From a virus, in IMG/VR virus record IMGVR_UViG_3300001683_000016, positions 32,001 through 96,000 of that record: DNA of 64,000 bases; one strand, written 5' to 3'. The notes beneath the pieces were generated by a model. That model saw only the letters and a program-made list of their open reading frames with translations. It made no database searches and was not told where the DNA came from. Positions 8,411 through 37,006 of this stretch are shown one piece after another. Within the stretch, counting starts at the first letter, position 1. Every line of letters starts with the position of its first letter. Both the position numbers and the translations under genes were made by a program.

Positions 8411-8593
8411 TGCGCTCACTTCCTCGTAGTGTGATTCAGAATAGAGTCCGAGCATGATTTGGTCGCCGTTATCCACGGTGATACCACCATCGGGTTCAAG
8501 GATGGGGCGCGAAAGTTCGTGCTTGTTCCAATCAGGGAAGAGCGCATCGCGTATCATCTCAAACAATTCATCAGGGATGACAATGTCAGTCAT
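8408..8593 (-). CDS. Small hypothetical protein
   Basis: ORF track; ATGA overlap with ardC. Confidence 0.55.
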   Translation of the reverse strand: MTDIVIPDELFEMIRDALFPDWNKHELSRPILEPDGGITVDNGDQIMLGLYSESHYEEVSA

Positions 8594-9528
8594 GCGTCCA
8601 CCCCCATGAGGGATTTGAGTATGTAATCTGCGGCTGTCTGAGCACTACTAAACGCTTGACTGAGAGCCTTATCTTTATCTTTACACGCAGCCAACCATGA
8701 CTTAAGGTAGGCTTGACTGTTAGCATTATCCTCAACTACTGAGTCAGGTTTGAACTCTCCGCCTAGTGTGAGTGTCACGATTAACTGCCCCATTTCAGCA
8801 ATCAATTCTTCATAGGCATACTCAGGTGAACCAAAGGCAGACTTGAGTGGCCTCTCAACTCTGTTGACATGACCTGTACTATGAATAGCCTCATGGAATG
8901 CGGTCATTACTTCACCAATAGGTGAGATGAATGATTCATGTGGTGGCATTACAATATCATCTTTCTCTGACGAGTAGTATGCACGTACACCTTTGCGATG
9001 CAGGACAAGTGTATCCTGTGATGCTATGTAATCGTTGAAGTGAACCATCATCTCAGACTCAGGCACTACCTCAACCTCTTCTACATCAGGTGCTACATAA
9101 TCGACACATTGTTCAACACAAAATACAGTGTACCATCGTGTTAGCCATCTGCTGCGTGTCTCTTCTTCTCCGTCATCGTTCTCAACAATGAACTTACTAC
9201 GCTTGAAGAACTGTATGTTCACGCCATCACCATTAGTCAAGCCTTCTATTGAGTAACCTTTGCTTAATAATTGTTTACGAGTAGCAAAACGAAGGTCAGT
9301 CCATCCTCGTACCATACCCTCTATCCATAGTTGTACTATATTTCCACCTCGATATGCTTTCTTGCTAACCAAGTTATGTGGCATACTACCTGTACCACCA
9401 ACCCAAGGCTTGCGCCAAGGTAAGTTGTTGTCCGTTATAGCAGTGCTTAGGTTAGCAAACCATCGCTCTTGATTTTCCTGCTGCTTCATCTCTCCGTATG
9501 CCCTTTTCTGTTCTTTGTTCATTGTCAT
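8590..9528 (-). CDS. ardC: ArdC-like antirestriction protein (ssDNA-binding N-domain plus zincin-like domain)
   Basis: LPWRKPW, NLVSKKAYRGGN, FATRKQ, YTVF, AYY...DDIVMP, FHEAIHSTGH, FGSPEYAYEELIAE, AYLKSW, AQTAADYI. Confidence 0.9.
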   Translation of the reverse strand: MTMNKEQKRAYGEMKQQENQERWFANLSTAITDNNLPWRKPWVGGTGSMPHNLVSKKAYRGGNIVQLWIEGMVRGWTDLRFATRKQLLSKGYSIEGLTNGDGVNIQFFKRSKFIVENDDGEEETRSRWLTRWYTVFCVEQCVDYVAPDVEEVEVVPESEMMVHFNDYIASQDTLVLHRKGVRAYYSSEKDDIVMPPHESFISPIGEVMTAFHEAIHSTGHVNRVERPLKSAFGSPEYAYEELIAEMGQLIVTLTLGGEFKPDSVVEDNANSQAYLKSWLAACKDKDKALSQAFSSAQTAADYILKSLMGVDA

Positions 9529-16946: not shown

Positions 16947-17795
16947 ATGAGTGACTTCTCCATTTACGAAGTTGGTCCACGCGACGGTCTACAGAGCGCC
17001 GACACAATAACATCAACATATGACAAAGTAACCCTGATACGAAAAATTGCTAAGGCCGGTATCAAAAATATCGAAGTTGGCTCAATGGTCAATCCTGACA
17101 GAGTTCCTAATATGGCCGATAGCGATGTGGTTTTTCTCAAGGTTCAAGATTTAGCGCCTGAGCACAATCTCGGTGTCTTAGTGCCTAATCGCAGGGGAGT
17201 TGAGAGAGGAAAGGCTGTAGGTGTGGAAAAGTTCAATATTTTTTTCTCGCCGTCCAACTTTTTCAATGTCAATAACTTCGGAAAGAGCCTAAATACGATT
17301 TTTGCTGAATATTGTGGTGCATTAGACGGAATCCGACCCGAAAACGTTAGAGTATACCTTTCTACAGCCTTTGGATGTCCCATAATAGGTGAAATACCGC
17401 AAGAAGATATGTTAAAAACCATGGAATGGGCTAATACGCTGGGTGATACTATCGTTTTGTCTGATACAATTGGCAATGCTAACCCGTCCTTAATTCGTAA
17501 AGTGATGCGTTTAACTGACAGAAAAATAGATGCTAAGATAGCACTACATCTACATCATGGATTTAGAGAGGGTAGAATGTATGATAACTTGTCTGCTGGC
17601 TTTGATTGTGGGATAACTCAGTTCGATTCAAGCATTGGTGGGATGGGCGGATGTCCGTTTATACCGGGTTCAGGGGGCAATTTAGCCACTGAACAATTAG
17701 TACGCTGGGGTAGTAAAGAGAATCTTGATTGTGGTGTTACGATTAAAGATTTAGAACCGCTAATGAAGTTTGTAAATACTAGAATAAAAGTATAG
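16947..17795 (+). CDS. hmgL: Hydroxymethylglutaryl-CoA lyase (DRE-TIM metallolyase)
   Basis: IYEVGPRDGLQ, VPNMADS, LVPNRRG, STAFGCP, LSDTIG, HLH, GGMGGCPF..G..GNLATE. Confidence 0.9.
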   Translation: MSDFSIYEVGPRDGLQSADTITSTYDKVTLIRKIAKAGIKNIEVGSMVNPDRVPNMADSDVVFLKVQDLAPEHNLGVLVPNRRGVERGKAVGVEKFNIFFSPSNFFNVNNFGKSLNTIFAEYCGALDGIRPENVRVYLSTAFGCPIIGEIPQEDMLKTMEWANTLGDTIVLSDTIGNANPSLIRKVMRLTDRKIDAKIALHLHHGFREGRMYDNLSAGFDCGITQFDSSIGGMGGCPFIPGSGGNLATEQLVRWGSKENLDCGVTIKDLEPLMKFVNTRIKV

Positions 17796-19812: not shown

Positions 19813-22695
19813 ATGGTATTCAATAAATCTTGGAACTATTTGAAATCAATAAGCGATTGGTCGTCTACTGATAGTTTATATGGTAATGAGTATGAAGATG
19901 AACCTAGTATAGAAAGAAGAAATACTCCAACTATGGATAACTCGTATCAAAAAATCTTACCTCAAGATGACCCAAGATTAGATTATAGAACTGGTTGGAA
20001 AGGTGTAGAACCCGTTAGGGCTATTCGTGTACAATCAAATCATCGAAAGGCAGGTCAACCCGTACCTCAAGACGGCTCTAATATAAATTATGAACAAGGT
20101 GACCCAAAGTTACCGCCAAAGATTCCTGAGATACCTGATGACGATGACCCTGTTTGGGATGACCCCGACTCACGATGGAGTAAAGACCCCAAATCGGGTT
20201 CAAGATATTATATGTCGGGTAAATATGAAGATGGTAAGTATATTTCTCGTAAAAACAAGCATTTTGTTGATTTGAAAAATGCAAAGGCTGGAACTTGGGC
20301 TGCAAACAATACTGTTGGGGATATTAATAATTTATATACTCATAACCAACCTGATAAGTTGGTCTATATTCGTGGGAGTCCCGATAAATATGGTAAAGTA
20401 CACAGAAGGGATAGTGACGAAGCGGATGAAGGTTTAGCAGAAATGTTTATCGAACATAAAAAAGATATTTCACCTGAAAACCTTGTTGAAGTACCGTTAA
20501 AGACTCATTATAGAAACCAAACAAAAGATATGGGTACTCCTGACCTTGGGCATAATAGACGCTCAAAAAGTGATAAAAGCGGGCGAGTTAGTCGTTGGAG
20601 TGATAAACCTGTACCTTGGGGCTACAGCCACAAGAAAAAGGGCGAACCAATGGACATAGCCTTCCAGTTGCTCAAGATGTCTGCTGATGAAGCAGATGAG
20701 TTGGAAGAGCAAATGCTTTCTGATATGGAAAGAGGGACCAGTAATCCACGCTCACGAAGAAAACAGCGAAGTATGGGCGAAAGGGAATCAAAGGCATCTA
20801 TCCATAATTTTCCCGGTTCATCATCTCGTAGAGAAATGTGGGATGAAAAGCAGAAAGAAAGAGACTGGGAACGATGGGGAAAGAGACATGCTGAAGATAA
20901 AGCAATTGCAGGAAAAGACCTACCCTCATATCATGGGTTTGGTAGCGATAGGCTAAGAGAAATCCATCCGGGTGATAGAGGGAACGATTTCTCATCTATG
21001 AAACCGGGAAAATATGAGTTTGACGGTGTAGGTAGGGAAGAAAGACCCATACCTTTTGAGCCGGGTGATAACCTTATGGAGTGGTTACAGCCCGGATACA
21101 ACGAATCTAACAACCTAAGACTATTCAGGGATAAGGATGACTCTAAACATGAGTGGCAACCAAAACCGTGGACAACAAGTGGCCCTATCAATCATGTTCC
21201 CGAAACCCAAGAATGGGTAAACAACCCTTTTGATGAAGAACCAACTTTTCACGGGATACCATTCAATGAAGATACGGGTTTCACAACAGGTGAACCAATG
21301 GACATAGCCTTCCAGTTGCTCAAGGGAAAGACAAGGCAATCTACTCTTTGGGGTTACGACCCAAAAATGGTAGAGAACTTACTCGCAGAAGATAACAGTA
21401 ATATTTTCATCGCCGCTAAACCCGGAAACGATGATATGCCCGATGATGAACAAAATGAGCGTTCGGATAAAATGCTACAAGACCTCGCCGCACTCAAAGA
21501 GGAACATGGTCACTTCGATATAACCAGTGCCACAGGTAGAGCGCAGTGGGACGCAGAACCATCTTTCATGCTCACTAACGTGCCTGATAGTGCAAGGGAT
21601 TCCATTAATGAGATAGCGGAAAGATACGGTCAGGAATCCATGGGAATCTCGGAAAAGGGGGAGAAAGGGGTGAACTACGTTACACCGGAGGGGGAGGTAA
21701 AGGACAAGTTCAGTAGTATGGAGATGCAGGAAAAACCGGAGTACTCTACAGATTTTCCGAGTAGTCAGAGGCTGGCTTTTACGGGTTGGCAGGAAGCAAA
21801 TAAGGCTAATCCAATGCACATAGCCTTCCAGTTGCTCAAGGGTTGGGCAGGTGGTGTTAGAGGTATAGGTAATAATGCCACGGACAACATTTATCATTAT
21901 CCACACGAATTAGATTACGGCGCGATAGACGAATATATGGGTGAGAATCCTGATGCTACTCTCGGTAGTATGGTAACGCCGTATCTACAAGGACAGTTTA
22001 CAAATAATCCTCCTCTCTTTCCAGAATTAAGCACAAATCCGCCAACCTATCAAAGTGAAAGACCTACTCAATTACAAAGCACAGTTCCGGCACCTTTTCC
22101 ACAAACCCCCGAACAATCTAAAGGTGTTCAAAATCTCATTGATGATGGATTTGAAAACTATGAATCTAGAGATAGAACGAGAAAACCCCATTACGATAGC
22201 ATGAATAATGCAGTCAGAGTATTATCTAGAAATTTAAGAAGAAACCCTGCATACAATTTTACGCCGCCGGGACGATTACGAGGCACTAAGGGACAGGGCG
22301 GTAGAAGTAGGCAAATGCAGAACATGAAACTAAGAAGTTTGTTAGATACTCCTGTATCTCAAAGTATGGCAGAGATGAACATACCGAAACAAGGAATACC
22401 AATTGCGGCAGGCGAACCAATGAACATAGCCTTCCAATTGCTCAAAGAGCGCAAGTCACCAGCAGCATTTGCTCACAAGTTAGAGTATGACAAGCAATAT
22501 CAAAAGACACCTAAGCGCGTAAAGTACCGTGAGCAATTAAACGCAGAGCGTAGGAAGCGTGGCATATACGGTAAGGGTGGTGCGGATGTTAGCCACACAC
22601 AAGGTGGTAAACTCACTCTTGAAAGCGCACATGCTAATAGAGCAAGACATTTCAAAAACAAAGGCACTCTCCGCAGGGTCAAGGTGAAAAAATGA
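19813..22695 (+). CDS. Tagged 5-module polyprotein-like accessory protein
   Basis: MVFNKSWNYLK tag plus four (GE/AN)PMxIAFQLLK linkers at 20641, 21289, 21805 and 22411; module 3 DUF3293/SAM-lyase-like, module 5 HNH-like. Confidence 0.8.
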   Translation: MVFNKSWNYLKSISDWSSTDSLYGNEYEDEPSIERRNTPTMDNSYQKILPQDDPRLDYRTGWKGVEPVRAIRVQSNHRKAGQPVPQDGSNINYEQGDPKLPPKIPEIPDDDDPVWDDPDSRWSKDPKSGSRYYMSGKYEDGKYISRKNKHFVDLKNAKAGTWAANNTVGDINNLYTHNQPDKLVYIRGSPDKYGKVHRRDSDEADEGLAEMFIEHKKDISPENLVEVPLKTHYRNQTKDMGTPDLGHNRRSKSDKSGRVSRWSDKPVPWGYSHKKKGEPMDIAFQLLKMSADEADELEEQMLSDMERGTSNPRSRRKQRSMGERESKASIHNFPGSSSRREMWDEKQKERDWERWGKRHAEDKAIAGKDLPSYHGFGSDRLREIHPGDRGNDFSSMKPGKYEFDGVGREERPIPFEPGDNLMEWLQPGYNESNNLRLFRDKDDSKHEWQPKPWTTSGPINHVPETQEWVNNPFDEEPTFHGIPFNEDTGFTTGEPMDIAFQLLKGKTRQSTLWGYDPKMVENLLAEDNSNIFIAAKPGNDDMPDDEQNERSDKMLQDLAALKEEHGHFDITSATGRAQWDAEPSFMLTNVPDSARDSINEIAERYGQESMGISEKGEKGVNYVTPEGEVKDKFSSMEMQEKPEYSTDFPSSQRLAFTGWQEANKANPMHIAFQLLKGWAGGVRGIGNNATDNIYHYPHELDYGAIDEYMGENPDATLGSMVTPYLQGQFTNNPPLFPELSTNPPTYQSERPTQLQSTVPAPFPQTPEQSKGVQNLIDDGFENYESRDRTRKPHYDSMNNAVRVLSRNLRRNPAYNFTPPGRLRGTKGQGGRSRQMQNMKLRSLLDTPVSQSMAEMNIPKQGIPIAAGEPMNIAFQLLKERKSPAAFAHKLEYDKQYQKTPKRVKYREQLNAERRKRGIYGKGGADVSHTQGGKLTLESAHANRARHFKNKGTLRRVKVKK

Positions 22696-23063
22696 GTAAT
22701 TATCCGTCATACCCAACGACACCTCCTAAAAAATGTGAATATTGTAATGGTGCTGGAATTATTGACCCTTATGGTGATGAAGAGGATGTGGCTCAGGCTG
22801 ACCCAAGATATCCACATGAAACATGTTGGAAGTGCAAAGGAACAGGTATACAGACAGAATGGTCATTTAACCCATATATGCCTTCTTTCCACCCCCCTTC
22901 TTTCCCCCCCCCTTCTTTCCACCCCCCTTCTTACCACGCCCCTCCCCCGTCCAAAATGGAATTAGGAGAGCCAACAATTAATTTTGACCCTGAATGGCAA
23001 GAAATGAATAAAAGTTCTAGTGTTGCATTTTCATTAGCGTGGAACTTACTTAAATCAGAATAA
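22692..23063 (+). CDS. CxxCxGxG (DnaJ-type) Zn-finger protein with C-terminal tag (AFSLAWNLLK|SE)
   Basis: CEYCNGAG...CWKCKGTG; PSFHP repeats. Confidence 0.7.
   Translation: MSNYPSYPTTPPKKCEYCNGAGIIDPYGDEEDVAQADPRYPHETCWKCKGTGIQTEWSFNPYMPSFHPPSFPPPSFHPPSYHAPPPSKMELGEPTINFDPEWQEMNKSSSVAFSLAWNLLKSE
22881..22940 (+). repeat. 4 x 15-nt pyrimidine-rich tandem repeat (CCTTCTTTCCACCCC)
   Basis: Direct reading; encodes PSFHP/PSFPP/PSFHP/PSYHA. Confidence 0.9.
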
Positions 23064-23064
23064 A

Positions 23065-23164
23065 CTGTCCGATAATTCCGATTGTACGTCTATACAAATA
23101 TACATAATATTACTTGTATATAGACAATACATTAGATTATTCGGACAGCCAACCCTTAAGATGA
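23065..23164. promoter_or_regulatory. Pseudo-palindromic element B plus promoter-like CGGACAGCCAACCCTTAAGATGA
   Basis: CTGTCCGA...TCGGACAG arms, inner GTCTATA/TATAGAC; CTTAAG about 35 nt upstream of ATG 23196. Confidence 0.65.
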
Positions 23165-23195: not shown

Positions 23196-23852
23196 ATGAG
23201 CAGAGATGTAGGGGATACAAACGAAATGAAAATGACAGGGTTGATTTTATCTCAATCGGCCTTAGTTGGATTAGCAATAGGAGTATATAGTTCGGGTTTA
23301 TGGATGCCCGCAGGTTCAAGTGCAAGTTCAACAATAGATGGTATGACTTATGCGATGGGTGCGCTTGCAGTTCAAACAATAGCATATTATTTGTTTAAGA
23401 TGTTCTTTGAACAGTCTATGAAAGAGAAAGTGGAAGTTGCAGAATTACAAAGAAACAGGCAGAATATGTATAGACAGCAGCAAATGGGCTTTGACCAACG
23501 TAGAGTAGATTTAGAATTGAGACAAATGGAACTGCAATTAGAAAACGAATTACGTATGATGCATGAAGACCCTAACAGAGTATTAGATAATAATTTTAAT
23601 AGCGGTGCAGTTAGTGCTGGTGTTCAAGGTGACTATCATAATACCTTCAACCCCGGACTTGTACCTGTGCATGGTGCAAAAAATGAGGTACCAATGAATC
23701 TTGGACTTACTAGTACACAGGAAGCAGTTGACTCAATGGCTCACTCCAATTTACCGCCACGCAGTTTACCTATACCGCCAAGAGACGGACAACCTACAAC
23801 ACAGCGTTTGAAGAAAGATGGTACGCCGGATTTAAGATATAGAGCATCGTGA
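23196..23852 (+). CDS. Membrane protein (2 TM) with coiled coil and disordered tail
   Basis: Two N-terminal hydrophobic helices, Q/E/R-rich heptads. Confidence 0.75.
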   Translation: MSRDVGDTNEMKMTGLILSQSALVGLAIGVYSSGLWMPAGSSASSTIDGMTYAMGALAVQTIAYYLFKMFFEQSMKEKVEVAELQRNRQNMYRQQQMGFDQRRVDLELRQMELQLENELRMMHEDPNRVLDNNFNSGAVSAGVQGDYHNTFNPGLVPVHGAKNEVPMNLGLTSTQEAVDSMAHSNLPPRSLPIPPRDGQPTTQRLKKDGTPDLRYRAS

Positions 23853-23863
23853 GGTAGACCGAT

Positions 23864-24151
23864 ATGGTACTACCCGGACAACTAATTCCCTCTCCGTTGC
23901 GTATATTTCGTAATATTGGTGATGATTCGGTCGAAGAAACTCTTAGAGCAATGCATTTAGCAAATACTGTAGATAATACTTATGAATGGGGACTTGGTTG
24001 GATTAGAACAATAGTCGTATCTATTGTTGCTGTTATGTCTGTGTCTGCTATGGAAGCGAACTCAGATTGGAATCTTTGGGAATTAACAGTAGAATGGTGG
24101 TATCAAAAAGTAGCAGATTTTGGTTCTTGGATTACTAATAAGTTTAGTTGA
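23864..24151 (+). CDS. Small membrane protein
   Basis: WIRTIVVSIVAVMSVSAM hydrophobic helix and Trp-rich amphipathic C-terminus. Confidence 0.7.
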   Translation: MVLPGQLIPSPLRIFRNIGDDSVEETLRAMHLANTVDNTYEWGLGWIRTIVVSIVAVMSVSAMEANSDWNLWELTVEWWYQKVADFGSWITNKFS

Positions 24152-24162
24152 GTTGATGCTTA

Positions 24163-24879
24163 GTGGTCGCTGCGAGTGGTAGTGTATTAGTAGGCGTGGC
24201 CTTGTATGGTAAACAAGCATACAATAATTGGAAATCTCGAAGAGTAGGGATTTATGGTGCAACTATGGTTGGTAAGACAACTTTAGACAAATATATGACT
24301 ACTCCGGGCGAAATGGAAGAAATACCTGAACATGAAAGAACCACGCATTTTAAGTTGGTTACTCGCTATATACTTCCTAAACCTACTCGTAAAAGAGTTC
24401 GCTGGGAAGGTGAAAGGAGGGTTATTCATTCTGCCGACATAGGTGGCGAAGAGCGTTTTTGGAATCTTTGGATTGATGATATGGTAACTAGACAATGTGA
24501 ATACGTTATATTCATGTTTGATGATAGAGCGTTTCAAGGAGGGGATGAGGCTTTACAGCAAGTAGGAGGTTTTAGATTCTTAGTTGATAGTATAATAAAT
24601 AGAAATTATAGGTATAGAAACTGGAAGAGTTGGAGAAGGGGTAAGAGGTATGTGCCTAAGATGATATTACTAGTTGCAAATAAAGCAGATAGATATTTTG
24701 ATGCTAAAGCGGCACAGTTATGGAGAGAGGGTAGAATTGGAGAACATAAGATATTTGACCCTTTTAGAGAAGACCTAATTAGATTACAAAAAGCAGGTGT
24801 ACCAACGCGCCGTTCATTCATGGCAACACGTATAGGGTGGAACGTTGAGAACACATTATTAGAGATGATAGATTACTGA
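24163..24879 (+). CDS. Ras/Arf-like small GTPase
   Basis: G1 GATMVGKTT, G2 RTT, G3 DIGGEERF, YVIFMFD, G4 NKAD, degenerate G5 FMAT. Confidence 0.85.
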   Translation: MVAASGSVLVGVALYGKQAYNNWKSRRVGIYGATMVGKTTLDKYMTTPGEMEEIPEHERTTHFKLVTRYILPKPTRKRVRWEGERRVIHSADIGGEERFWNLWIDDMVTRQCEYVIFMFDDRAFQGGDEALQQVGGFRFLVDSIINRNYRYRNWKSWRRGKRYVPKMILLVANKADRYFDAKAAQLWREGRIGEHKIFDPFREDLIRLQKAGVPTRRSFMATRIGWNVENTLLEMIDY

Positions 24880-24922
24880 CCTCAAAAGTGACCTTTTTAA
24901 TGTGGTAGGGTGTGGGAACGAC

Positions 24923-25102
24923 ATGGCGAAGGGGGCGACGACGACTGCATTAGTTTCCACAGGAGGCTCTAGTAATTCACTTAGAACTACTATACCTATG
25001 TGGATTGTGGAACAATTTGGTTTGTCTGCTGGCTCTAAAATAGAATGGACTTTAGAAGTTAAAAATGGGGAAATGTCTATTTCAGTATGCCCACAGGAGT
25101 GA
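24923..25102 (+). CDS. AbrB/MazE/SpoVT-type DNA-binding protein
   Basis: SNSLRTTIPMWIVEQFGLSAGSKIEW; TTTTTAA about 23 nt upstream of the ATG. Confidence 0.8.
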   Translation: MAKGATTTALVSTGGSSNSLRTTIPMWIVEQFGLSAGSKIEWTLEVKNGEMSISVCPQE

Positions 25103-26076
25103 TATATATGGTAATGGGTATGAATCCTTTTAATAATTCGCAACAACCAAATCTTGGGCAAGTAAACGACGCTACATTAATGGCATTATCTCAACAAGGA
25201 AATCCGAATTTCTCTCATGCTGCCCTATTAGAACAAGCATCAGCACAACAGCAAATGCAAAGGATGGCAACAGAAAAAAATATAGAAGTACCTAAGGTAA
25301 ACTTTTATCCTTCTCGTCATGCTAATCCATATAAAGCAAGAAAACAAGATATTAATCAAGCATACAAACTCTTGGCTCCTACAAAACGTGCTTTTTTTGA
25401 CCCTAGGAGATTATTTCGCCATAGTAAATATATGTATAATAAAGATACTGCTGTGTGTTGTGTAGATGGTTGTAATGTAAAACAATTAATACAACACGAT
25501 AATCTGTATGCTAGAATAACTGATGAAGAAAGTGGTAGAACACTTTGGGATATGTATTGGCAGAATCCAGTTACTGGAGAGCCTGAAGCGTTTATTGCTA
25601 GAGAGGGCGTAACTAGCGGTCGTAAAATGAGGGCTACATATTGTCCTGAGCATTTACATTTGTATCATTTGTTATGTAGGTGGGAGGACCAACAAGATGT
25701 TGAAGATGAAATGAAACCTAGTCGCTTCCGTGATAAAATAAAAAGAGGAGTTAGTATAGTCACAGTACCGATATCCACTGTCACTGGTGTTGATACAGGA
25801 CCATCTCACCCCATGATTACAAAATACGAAAGTTTCTTTGCTGAAATATCAGCAGATGCTAGAGGTAGTAACGGTATTAGTATGCAACATTATACTAATC
25901 CGGTTACTGGAGATAACGATATAACAACTATAACATTTGATATGAGAATGTTCCAAAAAGAATTAATGGAAATGAATCAGCCAAATCCAGCGTTTCAGGA
26001 TATTCTAAACCAACAGGCTCAAGTTCTCGCCCCCGCTCCGACGATACCGGAAGCAGTAATGGAGGGTATGCAATGA
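25087..26076 (+). CDS. Hypothetical protein (CxxxxC...CxxH)
   Basis: ORF track; start probably MVMGMNPF (25108). Confidence 0.7.
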   Translation: MPTGVIYMVMGMNPFNNSQQPNLGQVNDATLMALSQQGNPNFSHAALLEQASAQQQMQRMATEKNIEVPKVNFYPSRHANPYKARKQDINQAYKLLAPTKRAFFDPRRLFRHSKYMYNKDTAVCCVDGCNVKQLIQHDNLYARITDEESGRTLWDMYWQNPVTGEPEAFIAREGVTSGRKMRATYCPEHLHLYHLLCRWEDQQDVEDEMKPSRFRDKIKRGVSIVTVPISTVTGVDTGPSHPMITKYESFFAEISADARGSNGISMQHYTNPVTGDNDITTITFDMRMFQKELMEMNQPNPAFQDILNQQAQVLAPAPTIPEAVMEGMQ

Positions 26077-26726
26077 CTATGGGATGGAACAATCAACAAC
26101 CTGCTTCTAATGCATTAAATCTTAGTCAAACGGGTGCACCGAGTATGCAATATGGTAGTCCACAACCTAATTATTTACCGCCACAACAAGGTTGGTATGG
26201 TCAACAACAACAACCTTCATTTTTTAATTCTATGTTTGCTGGTGCTACTGGACAAGACCCATATAATCAACAAGCGATATTACCTCCGAGTGAAACTGAG
26301 ATTTTGATGACTATGTTGAATACCTCTTATCCGGTAGAAAGATTTCTTCAAAGTTCAATCTTCCCTATGTTATTAGAGGTTATTAGTCAAATTACTACAT
26401 TTTCATTACTGAATGTAATTAAAAATGCAAGTTATAACTTTGATGAAGAGAATGGTGTTTTTACATTAGATACTGCTAGTTTACCAACTGAATTACAAAC
26501 TATGAGTTCAGAAAATATAATGTCACAAATGAACTCTATGACTAATATGATTAATCAAACAGTTTCAAATGCAGATACACAAAGACAGCAAACAATGCAA
26601 AATGCTCAACAAAGTATGTTACAAAGTCAATTGACTAATGCGCTTGCTGACCCCGGTATGTTAAATAATGTAGCACAAGGTAGTGGTACTTTCTTCCGTA
26701 ATTTTATAACTGGGGGTAGAACATAA
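26073..26726 (+). CDS. Gln/Asn/Met-rich hypothetical protein
   Basis: ORF track; coupled. Confidence 0.7.
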   Translation: MTMGWNNQQPASNALNLSQTGAPSMQYGSPQPNYLPPQQGWYGQQQQPSFFNSMFAGATGQDPYNQQAILPPSETEILMTMLNTSYPVERFLQSSIFPMLLEVISQITTFSLLNVIKNASYNFDEENGVFTLDTASLPTELQTMSSENIMSQMNSMTNMINQTVSNADTQRQQTMQNAQQSMLQSQLTNALADPGMLNNVAQGSGTFFRNFITGGRT

Positions 26727-26995
26727 TGTTAGGTAGTAATGGTTCTAGTAATTTTGGTATGCCTGTACCAAAACAATTAGCAGATATGTCAATACATATG
26801 CTTGCTCCAAAGAGAGAAGTAATTGTAGATATGGTGATGGTACAATTAATTAGCGCTATACTTATTTTTATGGGTATTCTAATATTCAAAAATAACGATA
26901 TTAACCAAGGGGAAATGTCTATGTATATGGTAGGAGTATTTTTATCCTTTATTCTCTTGACATCTATATATCAGCGAATAACGCGGTTTGTATAA
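26726..26995 (+). CDS. Small 2-TM membrane protein
   Basis: Two hydrophobic helices. Confidence 0.7.
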   Translation: MLGSNGSSNFGMPVPKQLADMSIHMLAPKREVIVDMVMVQLISAILIFMGILIFKNNDINQGEMSMYMVGVFLSFILLTSIYQRITRFV

Positions 26996-27715: not shown

Positions 27716-28116
27716 TACCTGTATCGGATTTAATGCAAGTTCAACATCCGGGTTATCGTACTTTTATACAATCTAATACTATGTCCGCTATGCATTATCC
27801 TTTATTTTTTGATTATTGTATATGTGTATCAGAAAGATTTAGACATTATGCATATCAAGAGGCTAATGTACTAATTAATGAAAATAGTCTTATGCATATA
27901 ATAGATTGCATAAAACAATTAGATGATACCGATGAGCCTGAAATAGTATTACCGTTGAGAGAACAGATAAGACATTCATGTTACGAGTTCTTAGAACATT
28001 GTAATGATATGTCTACTAAATTCAAAAGCCCAACCAGTATTTCTTTATTTTATAATGAGTTAGGACAACTCGTGATGCAGACCGCTTTTGAGTTTGCGGG
28101 GGTACAACATGAGTAA
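27712..28116 (+). CDS. Hypothetical protein
   Basis: ORF track; coupled. Confidence 0.7.
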   Translation: MIPVSDLMQVQHPGYRTFIQSNTMSAMHYPLFFDYCICVSERFRHYAYQEANVLINENSLMHIIDCIKQLDDTDEPEIVLPLREQIRHSCYEFLEHCNDMSTKFKSPTSISLFYNELGQLVMQTAFEFAGVQHE

Positions 28117-29509
28117 GCCAGTAAAGATTTTGAAGTCAGGTATGACTAGTACTGGTAGCGATACTCGTATGTATGGACCGAGAAGTGAATCCTCTCACAT
28201 GTTCCATGGTAATCACGAAGATGAAGGGGATGTTTACGGTGGAGAAGGGGGTGAATATCGTGATGCAAGAATTGACCGCAAAAAGAAAGAACGTAAAGAA
28301 AGAGAATCTGAAATGAAGAAGTTAAGACATATTTCAGTAACTACAGCAGATTTACCTCCTGAAGATGAGGAAGAAAAAGATAAAGACTTAGAACCGACAA
28401 AATTCGATAATGAACTTGAGCCTTCTTTAATGACCGGTACTCCGGGTAATTTTGGTGCTATGACTAGTATGGCTAATCAAGCAAGGGGGCCGGGTTTTGC
28501 CGGTGGGCATAATTTTGCTATGGGAGAACCAATGAATATAGCGTTCCAGTTATTGAAAGGCGGGAGAGCCGGTTTTATAGGTAAAAAACCAAAGAGGGCG
28601 AAGGGTGCTAAAGCAGCAAGAGCGCATAAAGAAAGGCAGAAGAAATGGAGGCCATCTACTGGTGAGTTCAAAAGGCCGCCGGGTGGTATGACACCGGCTA
28701 GTGCTACATCTAGAAGAGCAAAGGCAAGAATGCGAGGTATTGCCGGTAGCAAGAAAACAGGGTTAGGTAGAGCACATCTTGCTGTCGAAATGTCTCACAG
28801 AGGTGTAAAAACTAAACAGCCTATGTCGAAAGATGTAAAGAGATATAGACAATACCTAGGACAGTCTGAAGCAAGAAAGCGTTTAGGTAACATACGAACT
28901 ATTTCTTCTACACCTTCTAGATTTGGTGCACGTTCATACAAAGCGGGGTTAACTGGCGGTGGTACACTACAAAGTCTACTCCCCGGACAAGCCCAACAAA
29001 TGAGAAGACCATCACTTAGGTCAATTAGACCTCCACCGTTAATGCCACCTTCTGCACCTAGTAGAGCCACTTTACCTTCACCTTCCATACCGAGTCCTCC
29101 TGTAATGTCCCAACCAAGAATGGGAGTTGGGGTGCAAAGCATGTCCAACCAAAGTCCAACTTATAGACCTAAGTTACCTAGTTCTTCAATACAAGGTGCA
29201 CCTGTAATGACTGGTGAGATTGGAGAAGGTAGTGAACTACAAAAAAGGGGACTATCATACTATGACACCACAGAATTAAGACAATTACTCCTTGATGCTA
29301 AAAGAGCCTTGAACCGTAAAGAGAATAAGAAAAAGGGTAAAGGAGAGAGAAGTACAGATGCTGCTAGTCATTTACCCGCCCATACAGAAGCAGGCCCGAA
29401 ACAGACCACAAGACCTGAAGGCGCTACAGAAGATGCAAATAATGAGCCTCGCACATTTGGTATTAATCCTCTAGACCATCTTACAAGTAGAGGCGGTAGA
29501 ACACCTTGA
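28109..29509 (+). CDS. Disordered basic/Pro-rich protein carrying an internal GEPMNIAFQLLK tag (putative internal head protein)
   Basis: Start MSKPVKILK|SG; tag at 28523-28558, followed by an Arg/Lys-rich segment. Confidence 0.75.
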   Translation: MSKPVKILKSGMTSTGSDTRMYGPRSESSHMFHGNHEDEGDVYGGEGGEYRDARIDRKKKERKERESEMKKLRHISVTTADLPPEDEEEKDKDLEPTKFDNELEPSLMTGTPGNFGAMTSMANQARGPGFAGGHNFAMGEPMNIAFQLLKGGRAGFIGKKPKRAKGAKAARAHKERQKKWRPSTGEFKRPPGGMTPASATSRRAKARMRGIAGSKKTGLGRAHLAVEMSHRGVKTKQPMSKDVKRYRQYLGQSEARKRLGNIRTISSTPSRFGARSYKAGLTGGGTLQSLLPGQAQQMRRPSLRSIRPPPLMPPSAPSRATLPSPSIPSPPVMSQPRMGVGVQSMSNQSPTYRPKLPSSSIQGAPVMTGEIGEGSELQKRGLSYYDTTELRQLLLDAKRALNRKENKKKGKGERSTDAASHLPAHTEAGPKQTTRPEGATEDANNEPRTFGINPLDHLTSRGGRTP

Positions 29510-31923: not shown

Positions 31924-32550
31924 ATGGGTAAGGTTTACGTTATTAGAAAAGAAGGTACACAACCGGGATTTACTAATTCAACTGCTGGTATAGTCGCAGG
32001 TGGGAATGGAGCGCAAGTTATGCTAACTCCGGGTGGCGGGAATCGCCCTGATGCAGCATCTTTTGGCCCTGCGCAATTTGACGATAAGAATGAACAAATA
32101 AGCGGTACAGGAGAATACGGTCCACAAGGTTCTTATCAAAACAGATTTGCACAATTTGGAGATAAATATGGTCGTTTGGCTAGATATGGTCTTGCTGGAG
32201 CAGGTGCTTTAAATTCATTTTACAATACTACGTCTAGTGGAGAACCGGGTGCTTTGAGTGCGGGTGCAATGGGTGGCTACACAGGATGGCTAGGTTCAGG
32301 AGGTACTGAAAGAGGCGCTGCAAACTTAGGAAGTCGATTCGGTGCACGTTTAGATAGAAGAAATACTACTGGTGAAATTAGTGAACAAGAGGAAGAAGGA
32401 GAAGAAGTCGGTCCTGATGGTAATAATCCAATAACGTCAGCATTGGATAGTTTACGGCCTAAGAAGGTCGTTGGACCTAAACAAACTACTCTAAATGATT
32501 TTGAAAATAATAATAATAAATATAACATGAATAATTTGCGTGGTTATTAA
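31924..32550 (+). CDS. Gly-rich putative ejection or pilot protein with C-terminal PIP-box-like motif
   Basis: MGKVYVIRK|EG; Gly-zipper helices; KQTTLNDF. Confidence 0.6.
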   Translation: MGKVYVIRKEGTQPGFTNSTAGIVAGGNGAQVMLTPGGGNRPDAASFGPAQFDDKNEQISGTGEYGPQGSYQNRFAQFGDKYGRLARYGLAGAGALNSFYNTTSSGEPGALSAGAMGGYTGWLGSGGTERGAANLGSRFGARLDRRNTTGEISEQEEEGEEVGPDGNNPITSALDSLRPKKVVGPKQTTLNDFENNNNKYNMNNLRGY

Positions 32551-32551
32551 A

Positions 32552-34033
32552 ATGTCAAAAAGCAAAGAAGAAATGGAAGCATTTATTCTTAATATTGACA
32601 CGGAGATGTCTAAGAAATCATTCAAGTATTTTTTTGTAGATATGCTAGGTTTCTTGTACAATCATCATCATGAGTCTTGGAAAGTAGGTTTAGAAGAATC
32701 ACAGTATTATTGCGTAAAGGCTTCACGCGACCATGGTAAATCTGTTTTCTTTATGATGTATGCTTTATGGTTAGCGGCATATAAACCTAATACTCACGTC
32801 ATGATATTCTCACATTCACTCGAACAGACACTTGAACACATGAGATTTGTACGTAATATAATAGAGGGTAGTGATTTATTGAGACATCTAAAACCACAGG
32901 GTAAACCTTGGGCTAAATCGTACTTCGAGTTTTCTAACGGTAGTCGTATGATGGCGAAGTCAGTTGGGGGTGCAACTCGTGGTTTCCACCCCGACATAGT
33001 AGTGTGTGATGATATTTTATGGGGTACTACCGCCAGTGAACTTGCTAAAACAGCAGATTGGTTCTATGGTGTTTTGTTACCTGTACTTCACCACAGCAGT
33101 AAACTGATGATGGTAGGTACTCCGTTTAGTTACAATGATTTGTATGCAGAATTAGAAGAGAAAGAAACATTTCGTGTTGAGACATATCCTGCGATAAATG
33201 AAGAGGGTGTTGCGCTATGGCCTGAGAGATGGGATTTAGGCGCACTAGAACATAGAAGAATGTCTATGCCCGCTATACAATTTTCACGTGAATATCTTTG
33301 TGAACCAATACATGACGTAGCCAGTATGTTTCCCGGCCCTATGTTAGAAAAATGTAGAGACCCGAAATTAGTTCTTTTAGATAGAGCAGAGACAAATTAC
33401 AATGAGGAAGGTGAAGCAGATGGTGTATTTGGTCAACACTTTATTGGACATGACCCCGCTATATCTTCTGACAAAAATGCTGATTTTACCGCTATGACTG
33501 TAATGAGACAAAAACCGGATGAAATAATAAAAGAAATTGTCCATGTTGTACATGAAAGAGGAATGTCGTCAATGGCTCAGAAAAGAATGATGGTGCTATT
33601 AAATAGTAAGTTTAGTCCTGATTTAATTGAACTTGAAGGAAATAACTTTCAAAGAATGTTAGAACAAGAAATGAGAGAATTGAGAGCAGATATGCCTATT
33701 CGAGTATTTATGACTACACGTACAAAGAAAGAATCTCTTTTCATGTCCTTACTTCTCGCATTTGAGCAAGGACATATAAAACTTCCATATGGTGATGAGA
33801 GGAGCAGGGCTTACACTCATAAAGTGGAACAAGAATTGAATAGATTCGGTATGCAGAAAAGTGGAAAGTTAGAAAGTGTGGGCGTTCATGACGATTTGGC
33901 TATGAGTCTTGCGCTTGCTAATTGGGCTTCTAAAGAGTTCAAAGGTAGCGTTACACTCTTAGATGATTATATGCCCGGATTTGATGAGTGGTTCGCAGGG
34001 GATAGCAAAACAGACTCTCTGATGATACCTTGA
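32552..34033 (+). CDS. terL: Terminase large subunit
   Basis: ASRDHGKS (Walker A), RGFHPDIVVCDD (Walker B), VGTP, LWPERW, GHDPA...DFTA, HDDLAMSLALA nuclease motifs. Confidence 0.95.
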   Translation: MSKSKEEMEAFILNIDTEMSKKSFKYFFVDMLGFLYNHHHESWKVGLEESQYYCVKASRDHGKSVFFMMYALWLAAYKPNTHVMIFSHSLEQTLEHMRFVRNIIEGSDLLRHLKPQGKPWAKSYFEFSNGSRMMAKSVGGATRGFHPDIVVCDDILWGTTASELAKTADWFYGVLLPVLHHSSKLMMVGTPFSYNDLYAELEEKETFRVETYPAINEEGVALWPERWDLGALEHRRMSMPAIQFSREYLCEPIHDVASMFPGPMLEKCRDPKLVLLDRAETNYNEEGEADGVFGQHFIGHDPAISSDKNADFTAMTVMRQKPDEIIKEIVHVVHERGMSSMAQKRMMVLLNSKFSPDLIELEGNNFQRMLEQEMRELRADMPIRVFMTTRTKKESLFMSLLLAFEQGHIKLPYGDERSRAYTHKVEQELNRFGMQKSGKLESVGVHDDLAMSLALANWASKEFKGSVTLLDDYMPGFDEWFAGDSKTDSLMIP

Positions 34034-34113: not shown

Positions 34114-35256
34114 TTGAATACTTTTTCTAAGAACAATGATGGTTGGTTTGAAGCCAATTTAGGTTATTCTGCATCTGATTTAGTATATCGTTTAAGGAAA
34201 GCGAGAAGAAGTAATAAAGATGAAAAAGAATTTATTGATAAAGCAATAGATGACATACGCACATTGAAGAGTATGGAATTGGATGCTACAATAGATGCTC
34301 ATGAATGGTGTGGTAAATATTCCGATGTGATTAAACAATTAGGAATGTCGGATGATAATATGAAAGCATTAAGAAAGTTTGGAGACTCACGTAGTGTTGG
34401 TTTACAAAGAGCATGTCATCAATGGGAAAAAGCAGATATTACTTTGAAAATGTTAGAAGAATATGAAGATGTGTGGGCTGATGAACAAAAAAAAGCATGG
34501 GTCGCTGCTATGGATGGCAAAAGAGATGCTAGAAAGATATGGAAGGCTACGTTACATCAAATGGATAGATTAACTGATAAAGAACGAGAGGCAATAAATA
34601 AAAGTTCTGAAATTCTATTACAAAAAGGTGCTATGAGTGGAAGAATTTTGTTTGCTAATTTACATGATAGAAATGTATTACATAAAAGTATGACATCAAT
34701 GAAATTAGCAAAGTTACTTAGTATGTATGGAGAAGAAGTAGATATTATTGCAGGTGCAACGAGAGGTACATTTGTAAAAATGAGTAGAACAGGATTAATC
34801 ATAAAAGACCCATGGGCTTACGCTGCTGGATTTTTAGACGCTGATGGTTACATAACTATTACTGGTAGGGGTGAACCTAGGGCGGGTTTTATAGCAACGG
34901 GTACTAGAGGTAAAGTACATTGTGAACAATTACAAAAAACATTAGATTGCGGTATTTTACAGTTAGACCAAAAAATTTACAAAGATGGTCAAAGAAGTCA
35001 ACATAGACTACAATTTTATTCTAAGGCTGATATAAGTAAATTATTGAAAGGAATATTACCTTTCTTAGAAATGAAGAAAACACAGGCTAAAGCAGTTCTT
35101 GCATATATTGAAGAAAACGACGGCTTAAAGAAAGAAGAACTAAAGAAAGTGGTAAGATACTACAATTGGAGCGATGACACCAATAAGTCGAATGCCCTCC
35201 TTTCGGAATGGGGAGTACAGGCTGACGATATAAATAAGTGGGCAGAGGCGATATAA
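34114..35256 (+). CDS. Protein with C-terminal LAGLIDADG endonuclease-like domain
   Basis: WAYAAGFLDADGYITI...LLKGILPFLEMKKTQAKAVL; about 220-aa helical N-terminal region. Confidence 0.8.
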   Translation: MNTFSKNNDGWFEANLGYSASDLVYRLRKARRSNKDEKEFIDKAIDDIRTLKSMELDATIDAHEWCGKYSDVIKQLGMSDDNMKALRKFGDSRSVGLQRACHQWEKADITLKMLEEYEDVWADEQKKAWVAAMDGKRDARKIWKATLHQMDRLTDKEREAINKSSEILLQKGAMSGRILFANLHDRNVLHKSMTSMKLAKLLSMYGEEVDIIAGATRGTFVKMSRTGLIIKDPWAYAAGFLDADGYITITGRGEPRAGFIATGTRGKVHCEQLQKTLDCGILQLDQKIYKDGQRSQHRLQFYSKADISKLLKGILPFLEMKKTQAKAVLAYIEENDGLKKEELKKVVRYYNWSDDTNKSNALLSEWGVQADDINKWAEAI

Positions 35257-35257
35257 T

Positions 35258-37006
35258 ATGGCAGAAGAGCAAGGAAGAATAGGTCGTTTGATATCTGCGT
35301 TAGGTAGTCCTTTCAGAAGTCGTACGACACCCGAACCGCAAATGCCGTTGTATACAACCGGTATTCAAGAACCTGTATTAGCACAAGGAATTACAATTCC
35401 AGCATTGTACGCAGTATCACAAGAGAATTTAATTTTACGTACCGTGATATCTAAATTAAGTCAAGAGATATTTAGAAGAGGATATTATTGGGAAAAGAAA
35501 TTCCAACACAAGTGTATAGATTGTGGAGAAGAGTACAAACAAGAAGCAGAAGATTGTAGTTTATGCGGAGGGCAATTAAAACAACCCGATGTACAACAAC
35601 TACTCTACCCTAAATGGTTATTAGAACAGCAAAATTCAATGGAACAAGATTTCATGCACGTTCTACAAGAAATAGAAAGAGACTTAGAGGTGGTTGATGA
35701 TGCATTTTTAATTTGTATAAAAGAATACTTTGTAGACCCTGAAGATTCTGATATCAAGTTTTATAGAGTAAAAGAGGTAATTAGAGGTGACCCCATATTT
35801 ATGAGAATAATTTCTGATAAGCGCGGTGTACGCGGTGGGCGATACAAGGTATGCCCTTTACATCGAGACCAAATTTCTTATCCCGGTCAAGACGATAAGT
35901 GCGAAGTTTGTGGTAATAATATGCAAGAAGCACATTATGCTAATATGGCTGGAAGTGGTAAAACACAATATTACCTTGAAGGTGAAGTAATACATCTTAG
36001 TAAATATAATCCATCTAAATTGTACGGTAGAAGTCCAGTAAACACAATGTGGAGACAAGCAATGACTCTCACTGCGATGGATAATTACATGTATACATCG
36101 TATCAGAAGAGAAGAAGTCCTAAGGGGATTATTTCTGTTACTACTGATAATCTTGAATCAATGAAGTCCTTTTGGAAAGGTGTTGATGAGAAGATGGAAA
36201 GAGACCCACACTACATACCTAAAGTTGGTATTGAATCTGCTACAGGTAGAGGTGGTGTGAATTGGGTCAAGTTCATGGACACTTTAGAAGAAATGCAATA
36301 TATACCTGTGAGAGATGAATTAAGAAATAGAATTGCGGCTTTCTATGGTGTTAGTAGTATTTTTATGATTGATAGCGGAAAGAGTGGTGGGCTAAACAAC
36401 GAAGGTATGCAGATTCTTGTAACTAATCGTGCTGTCGAGTTTGGTCAGAAAGTATATACACAAGTATTATTCCCTAGAATGTTAAAGCAAATGGAAGTAA
36501 CAGATTGGAAATTAACTCTTTATCCAAATGAAGAAGAGGATGAAATTACACGACTACGAAGAGATGAGATGGAAGTAAATCTTGCTCAAAGAATGATGAT
36601 GCTTGGATATAAGCCTGAATTAATGGAACAGGGAGATAGGGATATTAGATTCACATACCGTCAAATGAATCAAGAGCAAGACGGTGCACCTCCAATGCCT
36701 CCGGGTATGCAACCACCACAAGGAATGTCACCCGGAAGCGGCGGTCCTATGGCTGCTGGTGGCGCTATGGGTCAACAAATGGGTGCACAACCGCCGGGAT
36801 TATTGGCTAATGCTATGCCCCCATCTCAGCCGGGTGGAGAAGGTATGGGAATTAGAACCCCTAGAGGACCAGCCTCTCCGCAGAATAGAACAAGTGGAGG
36901 TATGGGTTCTCCTATGAGTAGTGTTCAGCAACGTGGACCAAAAAATTCCGTTGGACAAGATAATTCTCGCGCTTTAATGAACTCTAGACGGATAAAGGGC
37001 GCATAA
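35258..37006 (+). CDS. Portal protein (with two Zn-ribbon insertions)
   Basis: Position after TerL; EVIH...LYGRSP, RIAAFYGVS; CIDC/CSLC and CPLH/CEVC. Confidence 0.88.
   Translation: MAEEQGRIGRLISALGSPFRSRTTPEPQMPLYTTGIQEPVLAQGITIPALYAVSQENLILRTVISKLSQEIFRRGYYWEKKFQHKCIDCGEEYKQEAEDCSLCGGQLKQPDVQQLLYPKWLLEQQNSMEQDFMHVLQEIERDLEVVDDAFLICIKEYFVDPEDSDIKFYRVKEVIRGDPIFMRIISDKRGVRGGRYKVCPLHRDQISYPGQDDKCEVCGNNMQEAHYANMAGSGKTQYYLEGEVIHLSKYNPSKLYGRSPVNTMWRQAMTLTAMDNYMYTSYQKRRSPKGIISVTTDNLESMKSFWKGVDEKMERDPHYIPKVGIESATGRGGVNWVKFMDTLEEMQYIPVRDELRNRIAAFYGVSSIFMIDSGKSGGLNNEGMQILVTNRAVEFGQKVYTQVLFPRMLKQMEVTDWKLTLYPNEEEDEITRLRRDEMEVNLAQRMMMLGYKPELMEQGDRDIRFTYRQMNQEQDGAPPMPPGMQPPQGMSPGSGGPMAAGGAMGQQMGAQPPGLLANAMPPSQPGGEGMGIRTPRGPASPQNRTSGGMGSPMSSVQQRGPKNSVGQDNSRALMNSRRIKGA

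Follow-up and report, generated by a model that had tools for sequence, protein, structure and literature searches.

What would a tailed virus do with a small GTPase whose gene lies directly behind the genes of two membrane proteins? The question is raised by a stretch of 64,000 nucleotides (nt), bases 32001-96000 of the 115,554-bp IMG/VR virus record IMGVR_UViG_3300001683_000016, which is called the window here and to which positions refer. An initial annotation, made from the letters alone, had proposed a virus-encoded Ras/Arf-like small GTPase in an operon with two membrane proteins. The follow-up gave a result that appears to be unreported: an orphan Arf/Sar-like GTPase, seemingly without a cellular counterpart, is a core gene of magroviruses and forms a fixed module with membrane proteins. 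Genes were called as open reading frames (ORFs), and transmembrane (TM) helices were predicted from hydropathy only.

The ORF at 24163-24879 (+ strand, GTG start) encodes 238 amino acids (aa), and its motifs, its predicted fold and a match to an Asgard Arf at profile level agree with the proposed Ras/Arf-like GTPase. The motifs named in the initial annotation are all present: G1 GATMVGKTT at residues 32-40 (GATMVGKT, residues 32-39, nt 24256-24279), G3 DIGGE at residues 92-96 (nt 24436-24450) and G4 NKAD at residues 173-176 (nt 24679-24690). Further motifs emerge when distant relatives are aligned: a G5-like MAT/SA motif at 220-222, where these relatives have [SM]A[TRQK], and Thr60 as candidate G2 within a conserved Thr-x-His. 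A PxxTRKR motif is kept at the start of the interswitch hairpin, which occupies residues 75-90 of the model. G1 and NKAD were found in 80/80 relatives. In a 33-member alignment D92, G95, N173 and K174 do not vary at all, and the G1 residues and G94 hardly vary. These residues argue for real guanine-nucleotide binding.

The Glu at the catalytic position of G3, to which the annotation had drawn attention, is present in the window GTPase but does not characterize the family. Gln occupies this position in 55 of the 80 relatives, Glu in 22 (including the window), His in two and Asp in one; more distant members have Ala or Phe. Glu as a family-defining feature was ruled out, since most relatives have Gln. 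The Glu-type proteins are the closest relatives of the window GTPase, and the residue is best read from the alignment as a derived trait of this subclade.

Two further features point to a membrane. The first approximately 14 residues are uniformly hydrophobic with conserved G6, G11 and G16 and are followed by an amphipathic segment with Tyr, Trp, Lys and Arg. In the predicted model this region forms a helix from residue 2 to 23 (nt 24166-24231), as had been expected from its hydrophobicity. The N-termini of distant members are spelled differently, and in all full-length members they are equally hydrophobic or amphipathic. The second feature is a polybasic insert of 22 aa between helix 3 and strand 5 (residues 146-166, nt 24598-24660), which occurs in all members and ends in [KR]Y.P. 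In the group of the window it has 8-10 Lys/Arg and at most one acidic residue, and in divergent members 4-9 Lys/Arg. The combination of such an N-terminus with a polybasic insert would be expected of a protein on the cytoplasmic face of a membrane.

How far is this protein removed from known GTPases? With Pfam the best match was Roc (E 0.0021), below threshold as were all others, and Arf was not matched; PHROGs gave no match and NCBIfam only a sub-threshold small_GTP hit (E 0.0087). Among 33 family members the Arf model PF00025 matched five (best E 0.0048, below the gathering threshold), the SRPRB model one (E 0.089), and Roc was the commonest weak match (22/33). The single sequence found nothing meaningful among PDB sequences. 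A profile of 15 members found 8oun as best match (E 1.9e-7), followed by Arl8, Arl10 and Arl5 and then by Rab33 and KRas. The entry 8oun is an Asgard Arf (PMC11914678; bioRxiv 10.1101/2024.02.28.582541), and the profile alignment pairs the N-terminal helices of both proteins as well.

An AlphaFold model calculated from 33 sequences (21-81% identity) reached a predicted local distance difference test (pLDDT) value of 89.8 and a predicted template modelling (pTM) score of 0.86, with a Ras-like core behind the N-terminal helix. It superseded an earlier, poor model from 16 close homologues (pLDDT 57). With this model Foldseek retrieved more than 500 small GTPases at E values of about 1e-8. In a structure scan independent of Foldseek (VIA), Arf6 (Z 17.4; 162 residues superposed with a root-mean-square deviation of 2.6 Å), a fusion protein with Arf6 (17.4) and Sar1 (16.9) ranked highest, followed by SR-beta (15.9) and a Lokiarchaeal RagA-like protein (15.9). 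The first Rab was that of mimivirus (15.1), with Arl13B, G-alpha and RagD between the RagA-like protein and it; other Rab, Rho and Ras-type entries reached 14.5 or less. In a viral structure library the 50 best listed matches all came from giant viruses or their relatives. According to motifs and model, the ORF encodes a genuine, extremely diverged small GTPase of the Ras superfamily. Arf/Sar-like is the best description, short of a proven family placement, because the lead over other GTPases is merely about 1-2 Z units. The protein illustrates how far a Ras-like GTPase can diverge, as every curated family model misses it and the nucleotide-binding motifs are all kept.

The two genes in front of the GTPase encode membrane proteins, as the initial annotation had claimed. 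Protein A (23196-23852, +, 218 aa) consists of two TM helices, a charged helical region, a disordered variable linker and a C-terminal LKKDGTPDLRYK motif, which is conserved in the alignment of relatives. Its Kyte-Doolittle maximum in a 19-residue window is 1.57, just below the usual cut-off of 1.6; both hydrophobic helices are conserved in 23 aligned relatives, with conserved Gln and Ser residues. The charged stretch is rich in Arg, Glu and Gln and is helical, but the coiled coil assigned to it earlier is read from composition only. Protein A has no relative of known function in Pfam, PHROGs, PDB (profile) or the ESM Atlas; no holin of Pfam or PHROGs was matched, and the only hit was DUF350 (E 0.012). 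With two TM helices and a charged C-terminal region, it has the layout of small late membrane proteins, and versions of 146-171 aa occur in other virus groups. In this architecture it resembles a class-II holin, an analogy of layout. Protein B (23864-24151, +, 95 aa) has a strongly conserved soluble N-terminal part of approximately 45 aa, one TM helix at about 44-62 and a Trp-rich tail; its profile found no informative relative in the PDB.

The genes for A, B and the GTPase are inherited together. IMG/VR contained 182 loci of the window's group, and gene order was counted in 80 of these. The order A, B, GTPase, (AbrB), 25087, 26073, 26726, 27014, 28088, 29506 (genes named by start position) is kept in the 80 loci, with A present in 79/80 and both B and the GTPase in 80/80. 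Of the ORFs just upstream of A, that at 22692 was found in one and that at 18989 in seven of the 80 loci; thus, the conserved block starts exactly at A. In addition, the GTPase lies 8.1-9.7 kb upstream of TerL in 39/39 of the TerL relatives whose upstream sequence extends to 9.5 kb or more.

The GTPase is the best conserved protein of the module (median identity 69%, compared to 55% for B and 44% for A) and nearly as conserved as TerL, with mean distances of 0.25 and 0.18, respectively. From pair to pair, the distances of the GTPase rise with those of TerL (r 0.82) and with those of A (r 0.94). These correlations point to co-inheritance and not to contact, as shared ancestry alone can account for them. 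The ratio of nonsynonymous to synonymous substitution rates (dN/dS) was determined for five genes and is 0.061 for the GTPase, 0.085 for A, 0.087 for B, 0.086 for 26726 and within 0.07-0.09 for 25087. As all five values lie at 0.06-0.09 and hundreds of homologues exist, the genes are real far beyond chance.

Downstream of the GTPase and the AbrB-type gene, the ORF at 25087-26076 (+) encodes a soluble protein of 329 aa with invariant C124, C129 and C186-P-E-H189-x-H191, which is probably zinc-binding. It has 638 unnamed homologue clusters, and no relative was found in the PDB (profile) or the ESM Atlas. This Cys/His protein, which the initial annotation had not singled out, lies 3' of the GTPase in every virus group; as judged from these loci, no partner other than A and B is more constant.

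Three further groups, named P0127-, P0128- and P0146-type, were reached via distant GTPase representatives. The GTPase of the P0127-type (13 loci) is 37% identical to that of the window. The model of A detects a 2-TM protein in 8/13 of these loci, and at least one further locus, L169, has an undetected 2-TM ORF in this slot; three loci have the slot at a contig end or close to it. The B slot of the five loci inspected holds a 1-TM protein of 74-79 aa with the GW[VI]RT motif of B. A homologue of 25087 is present in 13/13 loci and homologues of 26073, 26726 and 27014 in 11-13 loci; AbrB is absent. In the P0128-type (four loci, GTPase 38% identical) the order is A homologue, 1-TM protein of 72-79 aa, GTPase, 25087 homologue; two loci were inspected, and in both a thermosome-like ORF lies approximately 0.1-0.35 kb upstream of this set. 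The P0146-type is the most distant (140 loci, GTPase 31% identical), with a 2-TM charged-helix protein of 147-150 aa, a 73-75-aa protein, the GTPase, a Cys protein of 226 aa and a protein of 235 aa in this order. In one of two loci inspected the hydrophobic segment in the B slot is above the TM cut-off of 1.5. Here, the module does not precede the terminase and lies approximately 1.2 kb after the capsid gene, separated by three small ORFs, one of them with a SAP domain. For a P0157-type divergent GTPase no locus was found in viral contigs.

Hidden Markov models of the window's group detected A in divergent groups at E values of 1e-5 to 1e-11 and 25087 at 1e-23 to 1e-48. The P0146 Cys protein aligned with 25087 by hhalign with a probability of 54% (E 1.3e-4), sharing KY.Y...C.V.G and MRGTYC.EH. 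The B-like proteins, including those of the P0146-type, have a common D[DE]S..L[RQ]..H.A[ND] pattern by eye. The gene set stays together at 31-38% GTPase identity and moves as a unit, and this is strong evidence, from gene order, that the constant members A, B, GTPase and Cys/His protein form a functional module. The synteny check suggested with the initial annotation thus found A, B and GTPase co-linear in 79-80 of 80 loci and in the same order in the divergent groups, and the GTPase gene is tightly and anciently linked to the two genes for membrane proteins, clearly unlike a sporadic recent host acquisition.

As a separate observation, different small DNA-binding proteins are joined to one module: in the window an AbrB-type protein follows the GTPase, and in P0127-type loci a 45-72-aa ORF, ribbon-helix-helix-like by eye, precedes A (L169, L170, L172, L179, L180; at about 9.05-9.3 kb). 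In the P0146 group the SAP-domain gene lies approximately 0.3 kb upstream of the module, with one 98-aa ORF between it and protein A.

A large protein database contained 539 GTPase homologue clusters (90% identity), some labelled Tara Oceans and several located on contigs of 80-125 kb. Searching 1.84 billion representative proteins with the GTPase profile resulted in 83 matches, mostly partial by length; the eleven longest were aligned and belong to the family, and none of the 83 was recognised as a canonical cellular small GTPase. Fused or longer forms of the GTPase were not found. Among 185,579 prokaryotic species genomes (one each) five loci matched, all with the same viral gene order. Four of these lie on contigs of metagenome-assembled genomes labelled Maricaulis, Promethearchaeati, Parvibaculum (approximately 8 kb each) and Flavobacteriales (101 kb) (L182, L183, L184 and L186), which are probably mis-binned viral contigs; such a block could mislead taxonomic surveys or surveys of Asgard GTPases. 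With tblastn the GTPase, 25087, 27014 and 29506 proteins had no match in a phage collection without the magrovirus reference ON649702. In the data searched, the GTPase is found only in magroviruses, as a core late gene.

Assignment of the window itself follows from its gene content. The family scan of window ORFs identified a T4-type large terminase (TerL, 32540-34033), a portal protein (35258-37006), a prohead protease (43967-45334) and a capsid protein of the SU10/HK97 type (45364-46533). In the phage collection the capsid protein has relatives in archaeal tailed viruses only, the closest being the Druskaviridae haloviruses HCTV-5, HVTV-1 and HCTV-1 (31-34% identity). Outside the window the genome encodes a thermosome subunit, a family B DNA polymerase, an RFC-like clamp loader and a PD-(D/E)XK nuclease; an SNF2 helicase, an ArdC-like protein and an HMG-CoA-lyase-like gene are encoded within it. 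A gene content with thermosome plus SNF2 was reported from the group A magroviruses, which infect Marine Group II archaea (PMC5434244), and HMG-CoA lyase was noted for Aoguangviridae (PMC10768690). Because the gene content matches these descriptions, the window is treated as part of a group-A-like magrovirus (order Magrovirales), putatively a tailed virus of Marine Group II (Poseidoniales) archaea. The fifth of the matching loci, L185 (CACGHY010000002.1), is a 106-kb contig of the Poseidoniales single-cell genome AG-422-I20 carrying the A-B-GTPase block, which gives independent support for this host.

In the membrane-associated reading that we regard as somewhat favoured overall, the GTPase acts as a GTP switch together with A and B at the host membrane; this is based on the architecture, the late position and the absence of recognised lysis genes. 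A membrane switch is suggested because the top structural matches Arf6, Sar1 and SR-beta are membrane-anchored and because the polybasic loop is present, and a membrane role because the invariant neighbours of the GTPase are integral membrane proteins. The process served by the switch we infer less firmly: late membrane disruption for virus release comes first, as a tentative choice, and a membrane-bound site of assembly or packaging comes second.

Release is considered for several reasons. No holin or endolysin family was matched in the ORFs scanned with Pfam or PHROGs, scans which skipped some small ORFs; the earlier statement that neither is recognisable holds within this coverage. In a hydropathy scan of the whole 115-kb genome, hardly any membrane proteins appeared in the late block besides A, B and the 26726 protein. 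Since other membrane proteins are thus few there and no envelope-degrading enzyme was recognised in the ORFs scanned, the module is a candidate for the missing function, the more so as it is a core element of the late cluster, unlike accessory genes for host manipulation, and as A has the class-II holin layout. The release machinery of tailed archaeal viruses was stated to be completely uncharacterised (PMC10791045). A precedent exists in Euryarchaeota with ArvA, an Arf-like GTPase with N-terminal helix that drives membrane vesiculation and has the zinc-protein partner ArvC (PMC10927574), and for Asgard Arfs membrane binding depends on GTP and on the helix (PMC11914678).

In this model of release, the GTPase in its GTP state would attach from inside to the cytoplasmic membrane of the host via the N-terminal helix and the conserved polybasic loop and would be recruited or activated at A and B. 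The nucleotide cycle would then time or gate a membrane event executed with A, with its holin-like layout of two TM helices and charged tail. By analogy, the Cys/His protein is a candidate effector or GTPase-activating protein (GAP). The most specific version, a rupture machine timed by the GTPase, in which both viral membrane proteins recruit the switch, the N-terminal helix of the switch is inserted and the archaeal membrane then suffers a holin-like lesion or a scission that the switch triggers or drives, is possible but doubtful.

Several findings weigh against the reading as a membrane switch for release. The place within the structural gene cluster suits an assembly role as well as lysis. 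The membrane proteins of the P0146-type gave no significant hhalign result with A and B, so that their likeness is architectural only. The second half of the N-terminal helix is too polar for a classical TM helix (Kyte-Doolittle maximum 1.28). No family of Pfam, NCBIfam or PHROGs is above threshold for the GTPase, and the term Arf-like rests on the profile match with E 1.9e-7 and the small Z lead. Finally, the subclade of the window has Glu instead of the catalytic Gln, and its hydrolysis kinetics may differ.

The last point leads to the question whether the protein is a GTPase in function at all. It could be a nucleotide-binding scaffold without a working GTPase cycle, at least in the Glu subclade, and the variation of the G3 position, with Glu, His and Asp in 25 of the 80 relatives and Ala or Phe in more distant members, would fit such a pseudo-GTPase. 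We consider it improbable, as the residues for nucleotide binding are invariant or nearly so. Moreover, Ras Q61E retains or even gains intrinsic hydrolysis, and Sar1 naturally has His at the catalytic position. If the switch works, it might also serve morphogenesis: GTPase and TM proteins could keep the assembly of procapsids, the packaging of DNA or the joining of heads and tails at the membrane, or they could set up a virus factory, with the GTP cycle as checkpoint. The module is always located within the morphogenesis cluster, 8-10 kb upstream of TerL in the window's group and directly after the capsid gene in the P0146 group, and the conservation of the GTPase is close to that of TerL. This platform is nevertheless unlikely in our view. 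Many phages embed lysis genes in late clusters, so position does not discriminate, and to our knowledge there is no tailed virus in which the assembly of heads depends on a small GTPase or on anchoring to a membrane. The haloviruses which share the capsid protein gave no tblastn match to the GTPase, 25087, 27014 or 29506.

A non-lytic manipulation of the host membrane, for instance to induce vesicles or tubules, to disturb division or secretion of the host, to exclude superinfection or to insert viral membrane proteins in the manner of SR-beta, has its best argument in ArvA, the nearest functional analogue in Euryarchaeota, which makes extracellular vesicles (PMC10927574), and in SR-beta (Z 15.9) with its N-terminal membrane anchor. 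Accessory functions usually vary, yet the module is invariant while the cassette upstream turns over; furthermore, Pfam detected no domains of the ArvB/ArvC type in the neighbours, and its SRPRB model matches only one of 33 members. This explanation is therefore fairly improbable. It is distinctly improbable that A, B and the 26726 protein, perhaps with the GTPase, are packaged into the virion and form or control a channel in the host membrane during genome injection. Flanking genes carry a repeated AFQLLK-type tag, hypothetically a signal for loading into the capsid, and the 25087 protein has a tag-like DIKQAYKLL stretch, but A, B and the GTPase are all without such a tag and a nucleotide switch would be of little obvious use inside a capsid. 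A sporadic, recently acquired host gene, or a defence or anti-defence gene unrelated to its neighbours, is hardly credible. Magroviruses did acquire their thermosome gene from hosts (PMC5434244). For the GTPase, the 83 profile matches included no canonical small GTPase, the five loci in species genomes all carry the same viral block, position and order are fixed across four groups, and PADLOC gave no match to a defence system. Host acquisition and defence are contradicted by the fixed viral order, the lack of a cellular homologue and this negative PADLOC result.

Around the module, successive genes from 23196 on are spaced by -29 to +22 nt, and a gap of 132 nt precedes A. Within this gap, at the border of the variable cassette and the conserved block, an imperfect hairpin of 84 nt with AT-rich centre is located (23065-23148, +; RNA fold -33.2 kcal/mol, z -3.3 against 200 shuffles), possibly a terminator, promoter or operator region. 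One transcription unit beginning at A fits the tight spacing and the upstream gap with the hairpin. The small DNA-binding protein of the AbrB/SpoVT-MazE type behind the GTPase (24902-25102, +) agrees with the annotation, although its match to PF04014 is marginal (E 1.7e-5, 25.1 bits at a cut-off of 24.7). The gene was found in 72/80 loci of the window's group and was not detected in the three other virus groups, so it appears to be specific to the former. The Cys/His gene is followed by a protein of 217 aa with a Q/N-rich N-terminus (26073-26726, +; 80/80 loci, co-linear with the module), which also occurs in P0127-type loci and in 3/5 loci of the genome collection (L182-L185). The next gene (26726-26995, +) encodes 89 aa with two TM helices, as had been noted before; it is present in 80/80 loci, in P0127-type loci and on the Poseidoniales single-cell contig. 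A Q/N-rich protein and a second 2-TM protein thus come after the Cys/His gene in most of the virus groups.

The tag was found in ORFs which all adjoin the GTPase module: GEPM[DN]IAFQLLK occurs in four in-frame copies in the 960-aa ORF 19813-22695 and once in the 473-aa ORF 28088-29509, and the related AFSLAWNLLK stands at the end of the 123-aa ORF 22692-23063. The 25087 protein has the tag-like DIKQAYKLLxPTKR at residues 86-100 (approximately), and its P0146-group counterpart LKEIxKVLKPEKK at the equivalent place.

Further observations concern genes outside the module. Between terminase and portal, a 380-aa ORF (34114-35256) has a weak LAGLIDADG_3 match (E 0.007) and is possibly a homing endonuclease. 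After a tail-tube-like gene a single ORF of approximately 5,516 aa extends from 56525 to the window end at 64000 and beyond (genome 88525-105075), with no Pfam assignment, the whole ORF being unscanned. An anti-restriction type protein with ArdC-N and zincin MPTase-PolyVal domains is encoded at 8590-9528 (-) and the HMGL-like protein of the HMG-CoA lyase family at 16947-17795. A SAP-domain protein (53164-53937) is kept in the structural cluster and has a P0146-type counterpart at L188:6475-6987.

Magroviruses are abundant viruses of the ocean, and their Marine Group II hosts are uncultured. The module is a concrete, clonable candidate for the exit of archaeal tailed viruses or another membrane-linked step. 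It extends membrane-acting small GTPases, which were tied to eukaryotic trafficking and lately to archaeal vesicles, to the prokaryotic virosphere. The fold and the switch principle are already known, and automatic pipelines had labelled some homologues (the label of the Joint Genome Institute is 'GTPase SAR1 family protein'). The magrovirus literature searched contained no mention of a GTPase. For Arf GTPases, an Asgard genome was noted to carry them in a region that resembles a mobile element (PMC11529989), but tailed viruses were not.

With the Arf family (Arf, Arl, Sar1 and the Asgard AArfs; PDB 8OUN/8OUM; PMC11914678) the viral GTPase family has in common the Ras-like fold, a membrane-type helix directly before beta-1, a conserved Trp that follows the G3 Asp by 11 residues, NKxD and a CAT-like G5 (MAT). 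The DxGGQ form of G3, with the catalytic Gln, is found in 55 of the 80 relatives, and the window and 21 others have Glu. It differs in its low identity (approximately 15-18%), in scores below the Pfam gathering thresholds, in the lack of Gly2 (myristoylation) and of the Trp before the G3 Asp, and in about 15 extra residues after switch I, by residue count, besides the 22-aa polybasic insert. Furthermore, it is encoded by a tailed virus with genes of TM proteins alongside. ArvA/OapA (PMC10927574) is likewise an Arf-like GTPase with hydrophobic N-terminal helix, in a euryarchaeal context and in a conserved operon with small partners; it acts on the cytoplasmic membrane, and its zinc-type partner was proposed as GAP, comparable to the Cys/His protein of the viral module. 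In contrast, Pfam matched neither DUF2073 (ArvB) nor the DUF2072 zinc ribbon (ArvC) in the viral neighbours, and the viral partners are integral membrane proteins. No cellular homologue of the viral GTPase was detected; the absence of recognised canonical cellular small GTPases among the 83 profile matches argues against close kinship with ArvA (HVO_3014-type).

The beta subunit of the signal recognition particle receptor is an Arf-related GTPase with an N-terminal hydrophobic helix as anchor, too, and is structurally close (Z 15.9 and 15.0), but no partner of the SR-alpha/SRX type is recognisable beside the viral GTPase. Giant viruses encode members of the Ras superfamily as well, such as the mimivirus Rab (PDB 5XC5; Z 15.1). 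These are clear, host-like Rab, Ran or Ras proteins in viruses of eukaryotes, whereas the GTPase described here seems to be an orphan lineage; it belongs to a prokaryotic tailed virus, and the host lacks an endomembrane system. The cassettes of phage holins, finally, share the small late membrane proteins in or beside the structural cluster and the two TM helices and charged tail of A, and no other lysis candidates were recognised in the virus. A is unrelated in sequence to the holins of Pfam and PHROGs, and no endolysin was recognised beside it. We know of no holin system that includes a GTPase. If the GTPase-timed rupture proves true, a lysis system would for the first time be described for a tailed archaeal virus, and control of lysis by a small GTPase for the first time in any virus.

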